Of a DNA stretch of 64,000 bases, positions 15,228 to 22,468 are shown piece after piece. Numbering within the stretch: position 1 is the stretch's first letter; each line of letters opens with the position of its first letter. A program made the translations under genes and the position numbers. This DNA comes from Marispirochaeta sp. (GTDB lineage Bacteria > Spirochaetota > Spirochaetia > JC444 > Marispirochaetaceae), in contig CAXXFF010000001.1 in assembly GCA_963676835.2 (NCBI GenBank), positions 864,001 to 928,000 on the forward strand. The letters are read 5' to 3'. The notes beneath the pieces were generated by a model that saw nothing but the letters and a program-made list of their open reading frames with translations, did no database searches and was not told where the DNA came from.

Positions 15228-16862
15228 GTGAAGATGGGGTTTTTATTCTCCTGTGCCATAATTCTCCGCATTGACGGCAGTGCTGCCTCACAGAGCGGAT
15301 ACGCGGAAAGCATCAAGTCCGCCGCCGACACCGGGGGCATTCCATTAATATGGAACCTGTCGGATGACCTGGCCGGGAATACCGGAATCAATGATTTTCT
15401 CAGCAGCGGCAGATCAGGCCTGCCCCACCCTTTTCTCAGCGAAGAGGAATTGAAAGCAGAAATCCATCTTGCACATTCAGACACAGAAACGGAAACTTAT
15501 CCCTGGCTGCTTCCGCACATGCCCGACCTCTGCCGCGGCAATATACGAAGTATCTATAATAAAAGAAGCAGGCTTCTGCTGACCCGGAAAGACCAGGTCT
15601 GGATTATCCAGGGATCAGAAAGCAGAACCCTTCCCCTGCTGGAACTGGACGGAATGTCAAATGATGTATGGGAGAAAAAGTCTCTGAAGCAGTGCTTCAG
15701 GGATCTGCGCAAAAAGGCCCGGCAGGCGGAGAGTCCAGGAGTTATCCTGATTGATAATCCCGCCGAAGCCATGGCGGAGGAAATCTTTTCACTCCTTGCC
15801 GCCGCGGTCACATCACTGCATATCAAGCCCACGGACCTGTCCGGGCTGCTGAGTTCTCAAGGGCCGGAACAGCCTGGCGTGCCTCCAGCCCTGCCGTCTT
15901 TTCTTGAATCCACCGGCCTGCTCCGGGATCCTGTCAGCCGGCAGCAGCGTTCAGTTCCCTGGACCCTTCCTGATGAAACCAGACTGAAACGTTTGAGTGG
16001 AGACAGGCTGAAAGATTTCCCGTCAGAGGCTGATATACACGTAACTCATCGGGATCTGATCGCAAATATGCCCGGGGAAGTCTATATGTATGAAGGAGAG
16101 ACCGGGGCAGTTTTCAATAAGGGGGATCTGGCAAGTCTTTACCTGGATAAAAAGCGCCCCATCGTCAATGGTGCTGCCAGGGCATTTATACAATGCAGCA
16201 GAAGAGAATTACCCCGGCAGAGCGGCTCCTGCACCGTCCGGAGAATCGGAACCTTTTCCTTCGATGATTATCCCGCCCGGGGGCTCAGGGATTCACTCTC
16301 ATTTACCTCATCATCCTTCAGCTCTCCCGCCCGGATACACAGGGATTTCTTTTTTGTCTCCGGAGATACCAGACTTTGTATCTCCTTCTTTATTGAATAT
16401 CCCGGCATTGAAGATCCCGATGTGGTGGTTGAGTCCTTCGGGTTCATGGAAATACCCCTTGCAAAGGCTGCAGGAAAAAACAGCTACAGTGTGGAAACCC
16501 GCTACCCTGATGGAACAAAAGGCAGCTGCAGATTTACCGAACCCGGGGAATATCTGCTTACCGGCAGCAGTTTCACGTTTCCATCCGGCAGTGGTTCACT
16601 CACCCTCAGCTACAGCGAAAACAGTCAGTCCGTGCAGGAACTTCAGGTCTCTTTACGCAGGGGAAAGCTCTATCTCAACCCCCGGGGCAGCTATGCACCG
16701 GTGTTGGGTACTGCCCTTTCCGGGTTGAGGGAACAGTTCAGTATTGTCCTAGATCTGGAAAACAATGTGAAAAAGAGAGAAGAAACCGGACTTTCCAGCC
16801 TAAAACCCTATGTAGAGGCACACCGTATTTTCAAAGCTGTTCTTCAGACTCATAGGCAGTAA
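15228..16862 (+). CDS. Hypothetical protein (544 aa)
   Basis: Long ORF divergent from groEL; no confident family. Confidence 0.6.
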   Translation: MKMGFLFSCAIILRIDGSAASQSGYAESIKSAADTGGIPLIWNLSDDLAGNTGINDFLSSGRSGLPHPFLSEEELKAEIHLAHSDTETETYPWLLPHMPDLCRGNIRSIYNKRSRLLLTRKDQVWIIQGSESRTLPLLELDGMSNDVWEKKSLKQCFRDLRKKARQAESPGVILIDNPAEAMAEEIFSLLAAAVTSLHIKPTDLSGLLSSQGPEQPGVPPALPSFLESTGLLRDPVSRQQRSVPWTLPDETRLKRLSGDRLKDFPSEADIHVTHRDLIANMPGEVYMYEGETGAVFNKGDLASLYLDKKRPIVNGAARAFIQCSRRELPRQSGSCTVRRIGTFSFDDYPARGLRDSLSFTSSSFSSPARIHRDFFFVSGDTRLCISFFIEYPGIEDPDVVVESFGFMEIPLAKAAGKNSYSVETRYPDGTKGSCRFTEPGEYLLTGSSFTFPSGSGSLTLSYSENSQSVQELQVSLRRGKLYLNPRGSYAPVLGTALSGLREQFSIVLDLENNVKKREETGLSSLKPYVEAHRIFKAVLQTHRQ

Positions 16863-17589
16863 TTTCTCCTGCATACAGGGGCTGCAGCCCCTTCCCCGGA
16901 ACCTCAAGCAGAAGTGCTCCATCACCGTCGAGTCCGGCCAGCCGGGCACTATACTCCTGCCAATGGTCGACGGAACCCGCTGCCACCCGGACGGATTCTC
17001 CCAGACCATAAAGCCTCATTTCGACCTCATCCTTCCACTCACCAAGAGAAAGTCCCTGATAGAGCCGCGGGAGGAGCAGCTCAAGCATGTTCTCCGGTAA
17101 AATGCGTTTACCGGTAATATCCTTCATTGAGGCCGGAGCTCGTCGAAAAGAATCCCCCCCTGGAGGCAGAAGATTCAGGCCCATACCGGCAAGGAACCAG
17201 TCCCCCCTGCCCTGACAGAGGATCCCCGCAATCTTTCCGCCTTCAAATAGAAGATCATTGGGCCATTTGATGCGGGGATGCAGACCGAAGTCCTCCTCCA
17301 GACAGAGCGCGAGCCCCAGACCGAAACGCAGCGAAAGACCGGAAGGCGAGCCGAACAGATCATCTTTATGCAGAAGCAGGGTAAACAGCAGATTTTCCCC
17401 GGGTGCCGAAACCCAGATACGCTCAGCTCCCCGCCCTCTGCCGCCGCTCTGAAATGCAGCGGTAATAACCGTCCCGGATACAGGGTTCTCCCGGATCAGC
17501 GCGGCCGCCTCATCCATGGTGGATACCGTCTCTTTGAGAAAATAGACCGGGGCATTGAAAAACGGGTTGGGAACAGGTAATTTCTTCAT
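16831..17589 (-). CDS. birA: Biotin-protein ligase without an HTH domain
   Basis: QSGGRGR, RIKWPNDL, KIAGIL motifs. Confidence 0.92.
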   Translation of the reverse strand: MKKLPVPNPFFNAPVYFLKETVSTMDEAAALIRENPVSGTVITAAFQSGGRGRGAERIWVSAPGENLLFTLLLHKDDLFGSPSGLSLRFGLGLALCLEEDFGLHPRIKWPNDLLFEGGKIAGILCQGRGDWFLAGMGLNLLPPGGDSFRRAPASMKDITGKRILPENMLELLLPRLYQGLSLGEWKDEVEMRLYGLGESVRVAAGSVDHWQEYSARLAGLDGDGALLLEVPGKGLQPLYAGEITAYESEEQL

Positions 17590-17634: not shown

Positions 17635-17666
17635 GGGTAACAGTTTTCCGTCTTCCGGTTGTTACA
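17635..17666 (+). promoter_or_regulatory. Candidate ECF-type autoregulatory promoter or operator
   Basis: GTAACA (17637-17642)-N17-TGTTAC (17660-17665), about 55 nt before the ECF start codon. Confidence 0.5.
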
Positions 17667-17719
17667 TACATTGAGAATACAGAACAGCCGTCGTGAAGAC
17701 GGGAACAGGGATATTAAAT

Positions 17720-18199
17720 GTGGCAGTTGATGTAGAAAACCTGTACAGCACCTACGGTCCTATGGTGCTGAGACGGTGCAGATCTCTTCTGAGAGATGAA
17801 GAAGCAGCGCTGGATGCAATGCAGGACACCTTTATCCAGGTACTCAGAAAAAAGAAAGAGCTCGATGCCAGAGCTCCTTCAAGTCTGCTCTATACAATCG
17901 CCACAAACATCTGTCTCAATACCATGCGGAAACACAAACGGACTCCGTTTCTCATGGATGACGAAATCCTCGCCCAGGTTGCCGGTTCAGACGATCCGGA
18001 ATCCCTGGCCCTGGCCTCCCATTTTCTCGACCGGCTGTTCCGTACCGAAAAAGAGTCGACCCGTACTATCGCGGTGCTGCACTACGTTGACAGACTGACC
18101 CTTGAAGAGACCGCGGACAAGGTAGGCCTGTCCGTGTCGGGAGTACGCAAGCGGTTGCGGTCACTGCGGAGCAGGGGACTGGCCCTTAAGGAGGTATAA
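17720..18199 (+). CDS. ECF (group 4) sigma-70 factor
   Basis: Region 2 ALDAMQDTFIQV...LYTIATNICLN and region 4 LTLEETADKVGLSVSGVRKRL; GTG start at 17720 (17693 also possible). Confidence 0.93.
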   Translation: MAVDVENLYSTYGPMVLRRCRSLLRDEEAALDAMQDTFIQVLRKKKELDARAPSSLLYTIATNICLNTMRKHKRTPFLMDDEILAQVAGSDDPESLALASHFLDRLFRTEKESTRTIAVLHYVDRLTLEETADKVGLSVSGVRKRLRSLRSRGLALKEV

Positions 18200-18203
18200 A
18201 TCC

Positions 18204-19013
18204 ATGAGCAGAATAATTCCGGATATATTAATAGAACAGGCAGCCCTGGGAGAACTTTCTCAGGAAAAAATGGACGAGCTGAGGAAAGAGTGTGACCTTG
18301 ATGCCCTGATTGCGGAAATTCAGGCTTCAAACAGGGAAATTCTGAATAAGTATCCACCGGCAGAGATAGCCGGGAGAATAAAGAGTGGCGGACAAATACA
18401 GTTAGAGAAAAAAAGGCCCCCTGCAGCAGAAGAAAAAAAGCCCCGACGCATACTTCAGGGGGTATTCCGGGTAGGCCTCCCCATGGCTGCTGCAGCCGCT
18501 CTTTTTATCGCCGTTGGACTTCCTGCCATGCGAAGCGGCGGCAGTCTCAGCGATGATGCCGGAGCCATGGGTGTGCGCCTTAAAGGGCAGGAGCCGGAAA
18601 TAAAGGTCTACCGCCAGACATCCGGCGGAGCGGAAGAGCTGCAGAACGAGGATACTGTCCACGAAAATGACCTGCTCCAGGTAAGCTACATAGCCGCAGG
18701 ATCCAAATACGGCGTTATCCTTTCCATAGACGGCAGCGGGGCAGTTACTCTCCACCATCCCGGCGGGGTGATCGGGGATCAGCAGCTGGCAAAGGGCGGC
18801 GAGTATGCCCTCCCGTTCAGCTATCAGCTTGATGATGCGCCCCGGTTTGAACGCTTCTATTTTATCAGCGGCAGCGAGGAGATCCCCATGGATCTGCTGA
18901 TGAGTGAGGCAGAGCGGGTAGCCATGAGCCGCACCGGGCTCTGGGCCGAGACCTTTCACCTGCCGGACCAGTTCCGCCAGGAATCCCTTCTTCTGCTGAA
19001 GGGCAGCCGCTGA
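18204..19013 (+). CDS. Putative anti-sigma factor: helical N-domain, TM helix, extracytoplasmic DUF4384-like beta domain
   Basis: Strong SD TAAGGAGGT overlapping the end of the ECF gene; TM VGLPMAAAAALFIAVGL; C-domain GVILSIDGSGAVTLH...YQLDDAPRFERF. Confidence 0.75.
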   Translation: MSRIIPDILIEQAALGELSQEKMDELRKECDLDALIAEIQASNREILNKYPPAEIAGRIKSGGQIQLEKKRPPAAEEKKPRRILQGVFRVGLPMAAAAALFIAVGLPAMRSGGSLSDDAGAMGVRLKGQEPEIKVYRQTSGGAEELQNEDTVHENDLLQVSYIAAGSKYGVILSIDGSGAVTLHHPGGVIGDQQLAKGGEYALPFSYQLDDAPRFERFYFISGSEEIPMDLLMSEAERVAMSRTGLWAETFHLPDQFRQESLLLLKGSR

Positions 19014-19031
19014 AAAAGGCGGGGAGATGAT

Positions 19032-21350
19032 ATGAAAAAGATACTTTGCCTTAGCGCAATAATTTTACTGTTTTCCGGCGCACACCTTTTCAGTGCCGAC
19101 CAGCCAGCCCTGCGGCGGTTCGCCCTGTTTATCGGTTCCAACAATGGAGGCAGCGAGCGGCAGCATCTGCTCTATGCGGAAAAAGATGCTGCAACCCTGG
19201 CAGGAGTTCTGACAGAAGTGGGCGGCATTGCCCCTTACGACTCGGTACTGCTCTCGGATCCGGCAAAAACAGATGTTGACGGTGCATTCGCATCTTTCAG
19301 AGAACGTATTGAAGCGGTTAAGTCCGGTGTAAAACGGATAGAGTTTATTCTTTACTATTCCGGTCATTCAGATGATGAAGGCCTGCTACTGGGGGAAGAG
19401 AAGTATCTCTACTCGGATCTGAGAAATAGTATAAACTCCGTGGATGCGGATGTACATATTGCCATTCTCGACTCCTGTTCCTCCGGAGCATTTACCCGGC
19501 TGAAAGGGGGAACCCGCAAGAGCCCCTTTCTGGTGGATGAATCGGTGGAGACATCGGGACATGCATTTCTTACATCCAGTTCTGAAGACGAAGCAGCCCA
19601 GGAGTCGGACTCCATCGGGGGCTCATTCTTTACCCACTACCTGGTCTCCGCCCTGAGAGGCGCCGCTGACTCAAGTCAGGATTCAAAGGTAACCCTCAAT
19701 GAAGCCTACAGCTATGCTTCCAACGAAACCCTGGCCAGAACCGAAAACAGTCAGGCAGGCCCCCAGCATCCGTCATACGATATAAAACTGACCGGTTCGG
19801 GAGACCTTGTTCTTACGGACCTGCGATCCACCGATGCGGTGGTGGAACTAGATGCAGCCATCGACGGCCGGCTCTTCCTGCGGGACAGTCAGGGCCGGCT
19901 GGTTGCGGAAATGCGCAAGCTTAAAGGAATTCCCATGGCACTGGCACTTCCTGCGGGCCTCTATTCTGCAACCCTCCAGACAGACAGCCGGCTGATGCAG
20001 GCGGATCTTCTGGTCAGAAGTTCCTATAAGGCTATGGTCTCACCCGCAGATTTTACTCCCCTGGACAGGGAAGGTACCCGCAGCCGGGGAAATCGCGAGT
20101 TCCCCTACTACACCCCCGGCCTGCCTTCAGACCCCCCGTCGGGAATTATCGGAGAAATACGCAGCGATCTCTACAACTCCCTGAACTGGGATCTTAACCG
20201 GGATCCGTCAGAACTTAAGCACCTCAATAACTGCTTCAGCCTGATTACCCCCCCGTCCATGGCCACCGACACGGTTATCCATAATTTCGGCCTCTATCTG
20301 GTGGGGACCAGCTACCGCCTCGAAGGCTTCGGACTGGGTATAGCAGGCATGCAGGTACAGGACATGCATGGTGCCCAGCTCAGCTCGGTCTTTTCCATAA
20401 CCGGCGGGGACTCACTCGGCTTTGCCGGTGCGGGTGTGTTCACCATAACCGGCGGCGATATGATCGGTGCAGCCAGTTCCGGCGTATTCAACATTGCCGG
20501 AGGAGATGCCTCCTTTTTCCAGGGAGCAGGGCTTTTCAACCTGGCCGAGGGAGAACTGACAGGGGTTCAGTCAGCCGGACTTTTCAACATAAGCGGTGAC
20601 GGAGTACGAGGTGTACAGGCTGCAGGGCTTTTCAATATCAACAACAACGATACATCCGGTGTACAGGCGGCGGGGCTTTTCAATGTCAGCTCCGGCCAGA
20701 CCTCGGGGGTTCAGGCTTCGGGAATGCTGAATATCGCGGAAGAGACCTCGGGAGTTCAGATTGGTGCAATCAACATTGCGGAGAATATCAGCGGGATTCA
20801 GGCAGGGGTTATCAATATTTCCGAAAATATGGACGGCCTGGCTCTTGGACTGATAAATATCTCATCCAACGGTCTGCACAATATGTCCGGCTGGACAGAT
20901 GATGCAGACTACCTCTACTTCGGGTACCAGTTAGGCGCCGGTGTAAGCTATACGGTTTTTTACGGCGGAGCACCCATGGACGGCGGGACAGAGGCGGGGC
21001 TTGTTTCCGGCCTTGGACTGGGCTTGCATCTTCCGCTGGGAACATTATATGCGGATATTGATCTTTCTGCGAAGATGGAGGTTCCCGGAGAGAGCGGAAC
21101 AGAGCAGGCAGGACAGTTTTACAACTATTCCGAAGAGAAGATTATCTGGCCGTCCCTGCGGGCATCCCTGGGCATGGAACTCTTCGGCGGTCTGGCTGTT
21201 TTCGGGGGAGTTACCCTGGAAGGATATATCCCGGAGGTCACCAACTTTTCGGAAACCTTTCACAGCGGATCAAGCAGCACGGTGCCTCTCTTTGACAGCG
21301 GCACCGACATGGAAATATTTCCGAAAATGTTTTTCGGTATCAGAGTTTAA
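19032..21350 (+). CDS. Exported caspase-family (peptidase C14) protein with GxQ repeat solenoid and probable C-terminal beta-barrel
   Basis: Signal peptide; FALFIGSN, YYSGH(112)S, ILDSC(149)SSG, GSFFTHYLVSALRGAAD; repeats at about aa 445-612. Confidence 0.88.
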   Translation: MKKILCLSAIILLFSGAHLFSADQPALRRFALFIGSNNGGSERQHLLYAEKDAATLAGVLTEVGGIAPYDSVLLSDPAKTDVDGAFASFRERIEAVKSGVKRIEFILYYSGHSDDEGLLLGEEKYLYSDLRNSINSVDADVHIAILDSCSSGAFTRLKGGTRKSPFLVDESVETSGHAFLTSSSEDEAAQESDSIGGSFFTHYLVSALRGAADSSQDSKVTLNEAYSYASNETLARTENSQAGPQHPSYDIKLTGSGDLVLTDLRSTDAVVELDAAIDGRLFLRDSQGRLVAEMRKLKGIPMALALPAGLYSATLQTDSRLMQADLLVRSSYKAMVSPADFTPLDREGTRSRGNREFPYYTPGLPSDPPSGIIGEIRSDLYNSLNWDLNRDPSELKHLNNCFSLITPPSMATDTVIHNFGLYLVGTSYRLEGFGLGIAGMQVQDMHGAQLSSVFSITGGDSLGFAGAGVFTITGGDMIGAASSGVFNIAGGDASFFQGAGLFNLAEGELTGVQSAGLFNISGDGVRGVQAAGLFNINNNDTSGVQAAGLFNVSSGQTSGVQASGMLNIAEETSGVQIGAINIAENISGIQAGVINISENMDGLALGLINISSNGLHNMSGWTDDADYLYFGYQLGAGVSYTVFYGGAPMDGGTEAGLVSGLGLGLHLPLGTLYADIDLSAKMEVPGESGTEQAGQFYNYSEEKIIWPSLRASLGMELFGGLAVFGGVTLEGYIPEVTNFSETFHSGSSSTVPLFDSGTDMEIFPKMFFGIRV
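20361..20870 (+). repeat. Intragenic 14-16 aa tandem repeats (GVQxAGLFNIxxGD / GxQxGxINIxEN)
   Basis: About 11 consecutive units visible in the translation. Confidence 0.85.
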
Positions 21351-21378
21351 GCATCAGAGTTTAAGCATCAGAGTTTAA
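21339..21378. repeat. Tandem 14-bp repeat ATCAGAGTTTAAGC, about 2.9 copies
   Basis: Copies at 21339-21352, 21353-21366 and a 12-nt partial at 21367-21378. Confidence 0.95.
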
Positions 21379-22468
21379 TAAGCCCACCGCCAAGGACAAG
21401 ATCGTCCCGGTAGACCACCGCTGACTGTCCCGGAGTAAGCGCTTCGGGACGGATCAGTTCCACCGCTGCCGTTCCGTCTGCAGCGGGAATAATCCGGCAT
21501 TCCACCGGCCTGCTGTTATAGCGGATCTTTACTTCACCCTCTATCTGTTCCGGTAGATCCCGGAAAAACCAGTTGCACTCACGGAGTCCGAAGCGGGTGC
21601 CCCCCAGTTCATCCTTCCGCCCGACTACAACCCTGTTTGTTTCCGCTTCAGTGCGGATCACAAACCAGGGCCCGTTACCCAGACCGAGGCCCTGACGCTG
21701 CCCGACGGTATAGCCGATATAGCCGTTATGACTCCCCAGTACGGTACCTGCGGTATCAACAATATCTCCGGGCTGATTGCCCCGGGGGTTTCCGGTAAAG
21801 GATGCAATGAAATCGGTATATTTACCGGGGATAAAACAGGCATCCTGGCTCTCTCTGGCCGAGGCGGAAGGCAGATCATGTTCCACTGCAATCTTTACTA
21901 CTTCGGTTTTCTCAAGATCCCCCAGGGGAAATACAAGATTGGGAAGCATCTCTTTGCGGATCTGATAGAGCATATAGCTCTGATCCTTTCTGGGATCCCG
22001 GCCTTTCATCAGAAAAATCCCATCTTCGGTTTCGGCTGTTCGTACATAGTGACCGGTAGCCATGCGCAGAGATTCTCCGGGAGCAAGAAACTCCTTCGCC
22101 TTCAGTACTTCCACCAGTCGCTGATAAAAGAGAGAAAAGCGCATCCGCTGATTACAGCGGACACAGGGGTTCGGAGTCTCTCCGGCAAGATAGGTATCCA
22201 CAAAGTCATTGATAACAAGCCTGGCAAAATCGTCCACCAGATCTTCCTGATAATACGCAATGCCAAGACGTTCCGCAGTCATTCGGGCCCGGTCCAGCAG
22301 CTCCGGCGAACAGCAGTCACCGTTGGGATAGATATAGTGGCTTACCCCGGCAAGCCTGTCGGTTTTTCCACTGAGCAGAAAAGCGGCTACCGAGGAATCA
22401 ACACCTCCGGAGAGCCCTACTGCAACGGGTTTACCGTCTAAATTTGAAAGGGGATTAATATAAGTCAT
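21368..22468 (-). CDS. mnmA: tRNA 2-thiouridine(34) synthase MnmA
   Basis: SGGVDS, TPNPCVRCN, ATGHY, KDQSY, ESQDACF, TPGQSAV motifs. Confidence 0.96.
   Translation of the reverse strand: MTYINPLSNLDGKPVAVGLSGGVDSSVAAFLLSGKTDRLAGVSHYIYPNGDCCSPELLDRARMTAERLGIAYYQEDLVDDFARLVINDFVDTYLAGETPNPCVRCNQRMRFSLFYQRLVEVLKAKEFLAPGESLRMATGHYVRTAETEDGIFLMKGRDPRKDQSYMLYQIRKEMLPNLVFPLGDLEKTEVVKIAVEHDLPSASARESQDACFIPGKYTDFIASFTGNPRGNQPGDIVDTAGTVLGSHNGYIGYTVGQRQGLGLGNGPWFVIRTEAETNRVVVGRKDELGGTRFGLRECNWFFRDLPEQIEGEVKIRYNSRPVECRIIPAADGTAAVELIRPEALTPGQSAVVYRDDLVLGGGLIKL

Follow-up and report, generated by a model that had tools for sequence, protein, structure and literature searches.

The 64,000-nucleotide window analyzed here (contig CAXXFF010000001.1 of Marispirochaeta sp., positions 864,001 to 928,000) carries a unit of three genes that encode a sigma factor of the extracytoplasmic function (ECF) type, a putative single-pass anti-sigma factor and an exported C14 caspase-like protease. 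Probably, this caspase processes itself, is tethered to the outer membrane and is the site-1 protease of a regulated intramembrane proteolysis pathway, in which it would cut the anti-sigma factor at K127|G128. The trio is real and conserved; its layout is already in print, whereas its mechanism was not found in print. What can be read directly from the sequence is the three-gene unit, the catalytic and pocket residues, three basic-glycine motifs and a promoter that co-occurs with the cassette; we infer the steps that go beyond the anatomy of the trio. Published work is cited throughout for the passages drawn on. The central features are as follows.

17637-17665, forward strand: ECF-type promoter, candidate for autoregulation (-35 GTAACA at 17637-17642, 17-nt spacer, -10 TGTTAC at 17660-17665)
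17693-18199, forward strand: ECF sigma factor gene, 168 aa (PF04542 above its cut-off, PF08281 just below, TIGR02937 above)
18204-19013, forward strand: putative single-pass anti-sigma gene, 269 aa
18573-18587, forward strand: anti-sigma motif V124-R125-L126-K127-G128, candidate site-1 cut K127|G128
19032-21350, forward strand: C14 caspase-like protease gene
19494-19508, forward strand: caspase linker motif T155-R156-L157-K158-G159, candidate self-activation site
20076-20090, forward strand: caspase motif T349-R350-S351-R352-G353, between the protease and its anchor, candidate site of release

The shared motif and the architecture of the trio

The motif counts come from 135 loci, selected to share less than 62% anti-sigma identity, whose anti-sigma and caspase alignments were paired. 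Anti-sigma positions 124-128 hold T, V or I (49, 26 and 20), R (120), L or I (39 each), K (135) and G (133), within a linker whose other positions vary and have many gaps; KG occurs in 134 of the 135 segments versus 18.8 in shuffles, and K127 lies a median of 16 residues outside the membrane segment. Caspase residues 155-159 have the profile T (112), R (117), L (36), K (135) and G (134), 6-10 residues after the catalytic cysteine, and a further basic-glycine pair at 352-353 (RG in 92, KG in 42) lies between the beta-sandwich and the outer-membrane part of the protein. Both caspase sites have a predicted local distance difference test score (pLDDT) below 50, and the anti-sigma site stands at the end of a low-scoring segment (107-122). 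By predicted topology, the anti-sigma motif and the protease are both periplasmic. Among distant loci with a caspase, 62 of 65 keep the anti-sigma KG, including distant myxobacterial paralogues.

The catalytic dyad and pocket residues are equally constant, with H112, D147, C149 and E191 present in 194 of 194 caspases and D52 and S110 invariant in the caspase alignment. In Arabidopsis metacaspase 4, the residues aligned with S110 and D147 are S84 and D137, which bind Lys225 of the self-cleaved linker (bioRxiv 2020.03.09.983940), and caspase homologues cleave after arginine or lysine (PMC7475262). The caspase thus appears to have an acidic pocket for a P1 arginine or lysine, in which D52 and E191 would also play a part.

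A sequence-only reading of this DNA had already described three tightly linked genes between birA and mnmA, and open reading frames and family matches agree with it: the gaps are 4 nt (sigma/anti-sigma) and 18 nt (anti-sigma/caspase), and the flanks are birA (16831-17589, reverse strand) and mnmA (21368-22468, reverse strand). Its naming of the first gene as an ECF sigma factor also stands, as the small product has sigma regions 2 and 4 only and matches TIGR02937 at 64.8 bits, against a cut-off of 42.9. Because homologues begin with V/M-A-I-D-V, the start may instead be the GTG at 17720, giving 159 aa.

The middle protein is divided as follows.

Anti-sigma residues about 1-70, helical cytoplasmic domain; about 88-107, membrane segment; then a flexible linker; about 130-269, immunoglobulin (Ig)-like periplasmic domain

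Hydropathy gives one hydrophobic segment (about 88-107), the AlphaFold2 model has a mean pLDDT of 84, and the outer domain of about 140 residues has Ig-like structural matches (Z up to 9.9). No Pfam family was found for the anti-sigma protein of this locus, and DUF4384 (PF14326) was matched by 21 of 112 homologues at E <=0.05 (best E 3.7e-6). Of the earlier description as a single-pass protein with a DUF4384-like outer domain, the one membrane segment therefore stands, whereas the DUF4384 label comes only by way of these relatives. The N-terminus aligns with a zf-HC2 protein (95.6% probability), and the Atlas neighbors were zf-HC2 and RskA_N, with scores below 0.9 that make them a lead only. 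The zinc motif HxxxCxxC is missing from this protein and present in 23 of 135 homologues. A helical bundle at the N-terminus with a single membrane segment after it is the layout of class I anti-sigma factors (ASD/ZAS), and the middle protein putatively resembles this class.

The caspase is composed of the following parts, all on the forward strand.

19032-19103: Sec-type signal peptide region, residues about 1-24, by hydropathy
19104-19820: C14 caspase-fold domain (PF00656; His112 at 19365-19367, Cys149 at 19476-19478; pocket Ser110, Asp147, Asp52 and Glu191)
19827-20066: small beta-sandwich domain after the caspase domain, by model, with no Pfam match
20214-20867: beta-helix of 16-residue LA_2272-type repeats, residues 395-612 (NF047436 above its cut-off)
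20868-21350: C-terminal 8-stranded outer-membrane beta-barrel, residues 613-772, by model

The earlier description of a signal-peptide-bearing C14 protease with His112 and Cys149, a repeat solenoid and a barrel-like end is borne out by these assignments. PF00656 scores 47.8 bits against a cut-off of 21.4, and the caspase domain of the model (mean pLDDT 87 for the protein) matches metacaspase 4 at Z 18.6. According to a hydropathy rule, which is not a signal-peptide predictor, 210 of 215 caspases have a hydrophobic N-terminal stretch and 13 have a lipobox-like pattern. The beta-sandwich recurs in 120 of 121 complete homologues; the beta-helix was found in 39 of the 121 and is optional. The barrel matches OprF (Z 15.2, rmsd 3.1, 122 residues aligned), NspA (Z 13.2) and OmpW (Z 12.8).

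OmpA-like barrels have periplasmic termini and export no passenger, and classical autotransporter (type Va) barrels have 12 strands; the predicted structure has eight. Because its 8-stranded barrel matches OmpA-like barrels with periplasmic termini, the caspase most likely faces the periplasm, and the "surface" location assigned to it earlier finds no support in this model. A related alternative is that caspase and beta-helix form an autotransporter-like surface passenger for outside substrates, with the basic-glycine motifs serving maturation and shedding. The beta-helix does resemble the passengers HMW1, EtpA and Ag43 of two-partner secretion and autotransporter systems (structural matches up to Z 20), and the NCBIfam repeat is named a surface repeat. 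However, the OmpA-like match of the barrel extends over its full length, most complete homologues do without the beta-helix, and the anti-sigma motif would be left unexplained, which makes this alternative highly improbable.

Many homologues are shorter, as 79 of the 121 complete sequences have at most 620 residues. The long-form barrel profile matched only 37 of the 121, and the ends of the short forms are barrel-like on inspection only; an aromatic residue stands among the last six residues in 88 of the 121. OMP_b-brl gave one sub-threshold match among 11 caspases tested, and the Atlas gave unnamed clusters only. In these shorter proteins, the protease would be held close to the outer membrane, and a release cut at 352|353 would thereby have a purpose. 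Two cassette caspases are unusual: one ends in a serine hydrolase of the beta-lactamase family and has no barrel end (L009:5944-8973, forward strand), and in another the match to the caspase falls into two stop-bounded frames close to the start, so that the gene is either interrupted or mis-sequenced (L006:6064-6787, forward strand). The genome also encodes a second, unrelated C14 protein of 715 aa, with a beta-propeller and a caspase domain (L248:751-2895, reverse strand, on G000:C3).

Conservation, promoter and candidate regulon

Caspase or anti-sigma searches gave 240 loci, or 234 after removal of 6 duplicates, with near-identical records and kin included. Of 213 loci where 600 nt or more lie downstream of the anti-sigma gene, 203 have the caspase after it; of 210 with room for a sigma gene, 205 have one before it; and of the 197 loci with room both before and after, 183 have all three genes next to one another. 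Titled records with the trio come from Spirochaetales, Latescibacterota, Pseudomonadota, Acidobacteriota and Myxococcales, in keeping with the earlier expectation that similar trios exist in myxobacteria and other spirochaetes; the closest are Marispirochaeta records, with caspase identities of 87% and 68%. With weak partial matches included, the anti-sigma profile matched 42 of 301 genomes of Marispirochaeta's phylum and 88 of 121 genomes in the phylum of a Myxococcales record, and 2327 clusters (50% identity) were counted at E <=1e-30. At nine loci with a near full-length anti-sigma match and room downstream, no caspase adjoins the anti-sigma gene (L044, L132, L152, L180, L199, L201, L203, L227 and L230), and no family accounts for the genes downstream of the anti-sigma gene in caspase-less loci. 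Anti-sigma homologues and myxobacterial metacaspases alike carry the label "ActD-like protein". This label may refer to the act operon of Myxococcus xanthus, a tie for which a literature search found nothing relevant.

Among five congeners, sigma, anti-sigma and caspase were all found in G427 and G429, and none of the three turned up in G426, G428 or G430 (97-98% complete), except for a single weak sigma match in G428. Since mnmA directly abuts birA in these three cassette-free congeners, the unit appears to have been gained or lost as a block; at a more distant locus (L005), it again lies between birA and mnmA. At the far end of the cassette, about three copies of a 14-nt unit (21332-21378) cover the stop codons of caspase and mnmA, possibly through slippage, and the locus L001 lacks this repeat. 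On the other side, convergent with birA, lies an open reading frame of 544 aa (15228-16862, forward strand) that has the same place in all five congeners and no family in Pfam, NCBIfam or PADLOC.

The promoter that had been proposed at 17637-17665 proves to be conserved. GT[AGC]AC[AG]-N15-18-TGTT occurs in 69 of 96 homologous upstream regions, with a spacer of 17 in 67 of them, against a mean of 0.3 and a maximum of 2 in shuffled regions, and the consensus across homologues is GTRACA-N17-TGTT. No sigma-70 promoter was detected in a scan of the cassette start, and the conserved promoter would be read by the cassette's own sigma factor. The site is an inverted repeat with a minus-strand copy 76 nt before the birA start, so that the same pattern is also aimed at birA; as mnmA abuts birA in the cassette-free congeners, birA may have needed a new promoter. 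Several close sigma paralogues (53-63% identity) lie elsewhere in G429, at loci L296-L299 on C549, C416 and C185, with no anti-sigma gene, caspase or upstream motif; the G429 assembly is 12% contaminated.

The evidence that is informative about the promoter beyond the cassette consists of the best sites and the cross-genome tests only. The strict pattern has 116 sites in 49 cassette-bearing genomes, own cassette promoters included, versus 39 for a wrong-spacing and 41 for a reversed control; in 31 genomes with no full-length anti-sigma match, it has 23 sites versus 22 and 25. The enrichment in cassette-bearing genomes has a Fisher p of 0.003, with kinship not corrected. An open reading frame starts within 200 nt of 66 of 98 sites in the cassette-bearing group and of 2 of 12 in the other. 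Of those 66, 38 have a hydrophobic N-terminus and five are the sigma factor itself. A Pfam scan of 51 downstream proteins found four of the MotA/ExbB type, two DUF2807 proteins, three ABC ATPases, one TonB plug and one BamB-like protein, and three LA_2272-repeat proteins are among the predicted targets. Roughly half of the 51 matched no family, and the several cytoplasmic enzymes among them may be chance finds. The GTRACA-N17-TGTT promoter thus seems often to head envelope genes, and the predicted targets vary between genomes. Extra promoter copies were seen beside the cassette at seven loci (L351, L359, L375, L386, L394, L402 and L405), where some diverge and others lie upstream in the operon or directly behind the caspase; they precede genes for exported proteins that are barrel-like by eye or of the DUF2807, LA_2272-repeat or LA_0442 type.

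In this genome, the best matrix sites outside the cassette are the following.

Site C3:67203, reverse strand: LPP20 lipoprotein operon
Site C3:513927, forward strand: efflux adaptor gene, then a gene for a 1047-aa membrane protein
Site C2:98250, reverse strand: POTRA/Omp85-like gene
Site C2:271459, forward strand: DUF2807 gene

G427 and G429 both keep the motif before their orthologues of the efflux adaptor and DUF2807 genes, and G427 also keeps it before its POTRA orthologue; for these three proteins, the cassette-free congeners G426, G428 and G430 gave distant homologues only, or none. The LPP20 gene is present in all five congeners. G427 (with one -10 mismatch) and G429 retain its -35 box, which G426, G428 and G430 lack, their region being TGTG-TATAAT-like; the missing box in these three may represent one event.

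The candidate regulon also bears on an anti-phage function, in which the trio would be an alarm that switches on defense genes, like the DdvA/DdvS system of M. xanthus. The caspase-clan domain of DdvA is proposed to be its own site-1 protease, and the system controls a CBASS-CRISPR island (PMC11506125). However, no defense family appeared among the 51 predicted targets in Pfam, many of them having no family at all. Cas1 was not found in this 97%-complete genome, and PADLOC gave no family for the anti-sigma factor or caspase and one marginal HTH match on the sigma factor. Together with the birA and mnmA flanks, these results agree with the earlier view that the system is independent of CRISPR, and an anti-phage alarm is the least probable of the alternatives considered here.

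The proposed pathway and its alternatives

In the proposed pathway, the membrane protein would hold the sigma factor through its helical N-terminal domain, and the caspase would be exported as a zymogen, its barrel serving as the anchor and its protease part lying in the periplasm. Upon a cue at the outer membrane, for which damage or failed barrel assembly is the best guess from the targets, the caspase would cut itself after K158 for activation and after R352 for release from the anchor. It would then cut the anti-sigma factor at K127|G128, shedding the Ig-like domain, and the remaining stub would be cut by the RseP-like M50 protease of the genome. The freed sigma factor would transcribe its own operon, giving positive feedback, together with a small envelope-gene regulon. 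The genome has one M50 protease gene (G000:C3:112746-114032), which is weak evidence, as M50 proteases are found in all 14 control genomes. It is also conceivable, though somewhat doubtful, that the tethered zymogen monitors the condition of the outer membrane, and that caspase clipped at R352|G353, or left loose after failed barrel assembly, diffuses to the inner membrane and cuts the anti-sigma factor there, at the shared basic-glycine motif.

Several observations weigh against this pathway. Of the nine anti-sigma loci that lack an adjacent caspase, eight keep KG, so that the motif is not strictly dependent on a neighboring caspase. R-G stands at the post-cysteine position of the second, unrelated C14 protein as well, which makes this site a general trait of the subfamily. 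Strand 1 of the Ig-like domain comes right after the anti-sigma motif, for which a structural role is conceivable. Covariation between the partners at the P3 arginine, with an odds ratio of 8-11 by row counting, was not significant on the tree (median p 0.25). As for the promoter, neither a loose genome-wide matrix scan (34 sites versus 44 in the control) nor the strict pattern in this genome (18 versus 23) gave an excess, and the partnerless sigma paralogues of G429 could also read the promoter.

The covariation was examined in 195 rows kept with KG in both partners, four anti-sigma motifs having been realigned by eye. In the tree-aware test, the P3 change went in the same direction in about 3 of 9 pairs and in the opposite direction in 0.2, and P2 identity between the partners had p 0.05-0.07 once close rows were removed. 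A predicted complex of caspase residues 25-358 and anti-sigma residues 110-269 scored 0.16 and 0.22 against a mark of 0.32 and was used neither way.

These observations leave room for a different role, in which the caspase would be mainly an output of the sigma regulon, an exported enzyme for envelope remodeling or quality control, the R-x-K-G loop would serve feedback or act as a substrate-like inhibitor, and the first signal would be read by the Ig-like domain together with another protease. The caspase gene lies under the sigma factor's own promoter, anti-sigma factors with KG exist where no caspase is adjacent, and in Haliangium PCi is both cut by PCaspase and inhibits it (bioRxiv 2023.06.23.546230). 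However, a cut at a motif so close outside the membrane would shed the whole outer domain, and the other predicted targets vary, whereas the caspase is adjacent in the 203 of 213 loci counted above. We consider such a role rather unlikely.

The position of the motif directly before the first Ig-like strand would also suit a protein that is never cleaved, in which K-G caps the Ig-like domain or forms a docking strand and signaling proceeds by contact, like that of a TonB-dependent transducer with a FecR-type anti-sigma factor. ExbB/TolQ-type genes and a TonB plug protein are among the predicted targets, as this would have it. Contact alone, however, does not call for a catalytic dyad and pocket residues that are invariant in 194 of 194 caspases, nor for the same five-residue profile in the disordered linker of the caspase, a different structural context. 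Signaling by contact is accordingly judged improbable, and site-1 cleavage by the caspase is preferred.

Related systems and significance

The gene layout has been known since 2012, when Asplund-Samuelsson et al. catalogued operons of a sigma-70 factor and a metacaspase, consisting of an ECF sigma gene, a hypothetical and often single-TM (transmembrane) protein and a metacaspase (PMC3501461). Four are in M. xanthus, with the middle genes MXAN_4950, 6682, 7215 and 7455, and others are in Anaeromyxobacter, Haliangium, Sorangium, Ralstonia and Fibrobacter (PMC3501461). The likeness to the present trio is one of layout, and the cited passages of the catalogue give the layout only, with nothing on an anti-sigma role, a barrel, a cleavage motif, a promoter or a mechanism (PMC3501461). 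The earlier statement that no mechanistic description is known holds for the literature searched, which mostly leaves out subscription journals and in which no mechanistic account of the trio was found, but the operon layout itself was already published (PMC3501461).

The sequence-only reading had taken the Csx29/Csx30 system as its parallel, and the link between a caspase-clan protease and a sigma factor does exist there, in Csx29/Csx30/CASP-sigma (PMC10028731), as it does in SAVED-CHAT/PCaspase/PCi/PCc-sigma, where PCaspase is a C14 protease activated by cleavage (bioRxiv 2023.06.23.546230). However, both systems are CRISPR-triggered, and as described in the cited passages they have no exported protease, membrane anti-sigma factor or outer-membrane anchor (PMC10028731; bioRxiv 2023.06.23.546230). 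The closest parallels are instead DegS/RseA/RseP and DdvA/DdvS. The RpoE/RseA/DegS/RseP pathway likewise has an ECF sigma factor, a single-pass anti-sigma factor, a periplasmic site-1 cut followed by an M50 cut (both proposed for the trio) and an envelope regulon, but its site-1 protease is a PDZ serine protease of the inner membrane (PMC7826278). The candidate in the trio is an operon-encoded C14 cysteine protease putatively tethered to the outer membrane, although another protease of the genome may act there instead. In DdvS/DdvA, a periplasmic caspase-clan domain is proposed to cut the membrane-near linker of the anti-sigma factor before RseP acts; this TPR-CHAT domain lies inside the anti-sigma factor, the system controls a defense island, and self-cleavage is itself a hypothesis (PMC11506125; PMC6061681). 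The trio differs in having a separate C14 enzyme with a barrel, an Ig-like outer domain with no TPR-CHAT, and an envelope-type regulon. By analogy, the trio would work like DegS/RseA/RseP and the proposed DdvA/DdvS but belong to neither.

Among proteases, metacaspase 4 (bioRxiv 2020.03.09.983940) and the orthocaspase MaOC1 (PMC7475262) have the same fold, dyad and basic-residue pocket and are activated by self-cleavage at a linker lysine or arginine, but the passages cited give neither of them an exported barrel fusion or a tie to a sigma factor. Among sigma factors, group ECF25 has a single-pass anti-sigma factor at +1 with a zinc domain and/or DUF4384, features that are found here through homologues, and ranges over Deltaproteobacteria, Spirochaetes, Fibrobacteres and Acidobacteria (PMC7826278). 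In contrast, its promoters, given for subgroups s1 and s2 only, are GGAAC/GTC rather than GTRAC/TGTT, and the entry names no caspase neighbor in the passage cited (PMC7826278). ECF25 therefore fits the trio in part, by anti-sigma type and range and not by listed promoter.

Bacterial C14 caspase homologues have, to our knowledge, few known natural substrates, and most of the roles proposed for them concern cell death. The trio offers a named candidate bond, K127|G128, together with two candidate self-cleavage bonds, a promoter and candidate targets. The function of an exported bacterial caspase thereby becomes directly testable, and M. xanthus, with four such operons, is a tractable host. If the proposed pathway is true, the known routes of envelope signaling would gain a site-1 protease that has a caspase fold and acts from the outer membrane. 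If, in addition, the caspase is released as tentatively suggested above, it would be a messenger from the outer to the inner membrane that switches on outer-membrane and lipoprotein genes.

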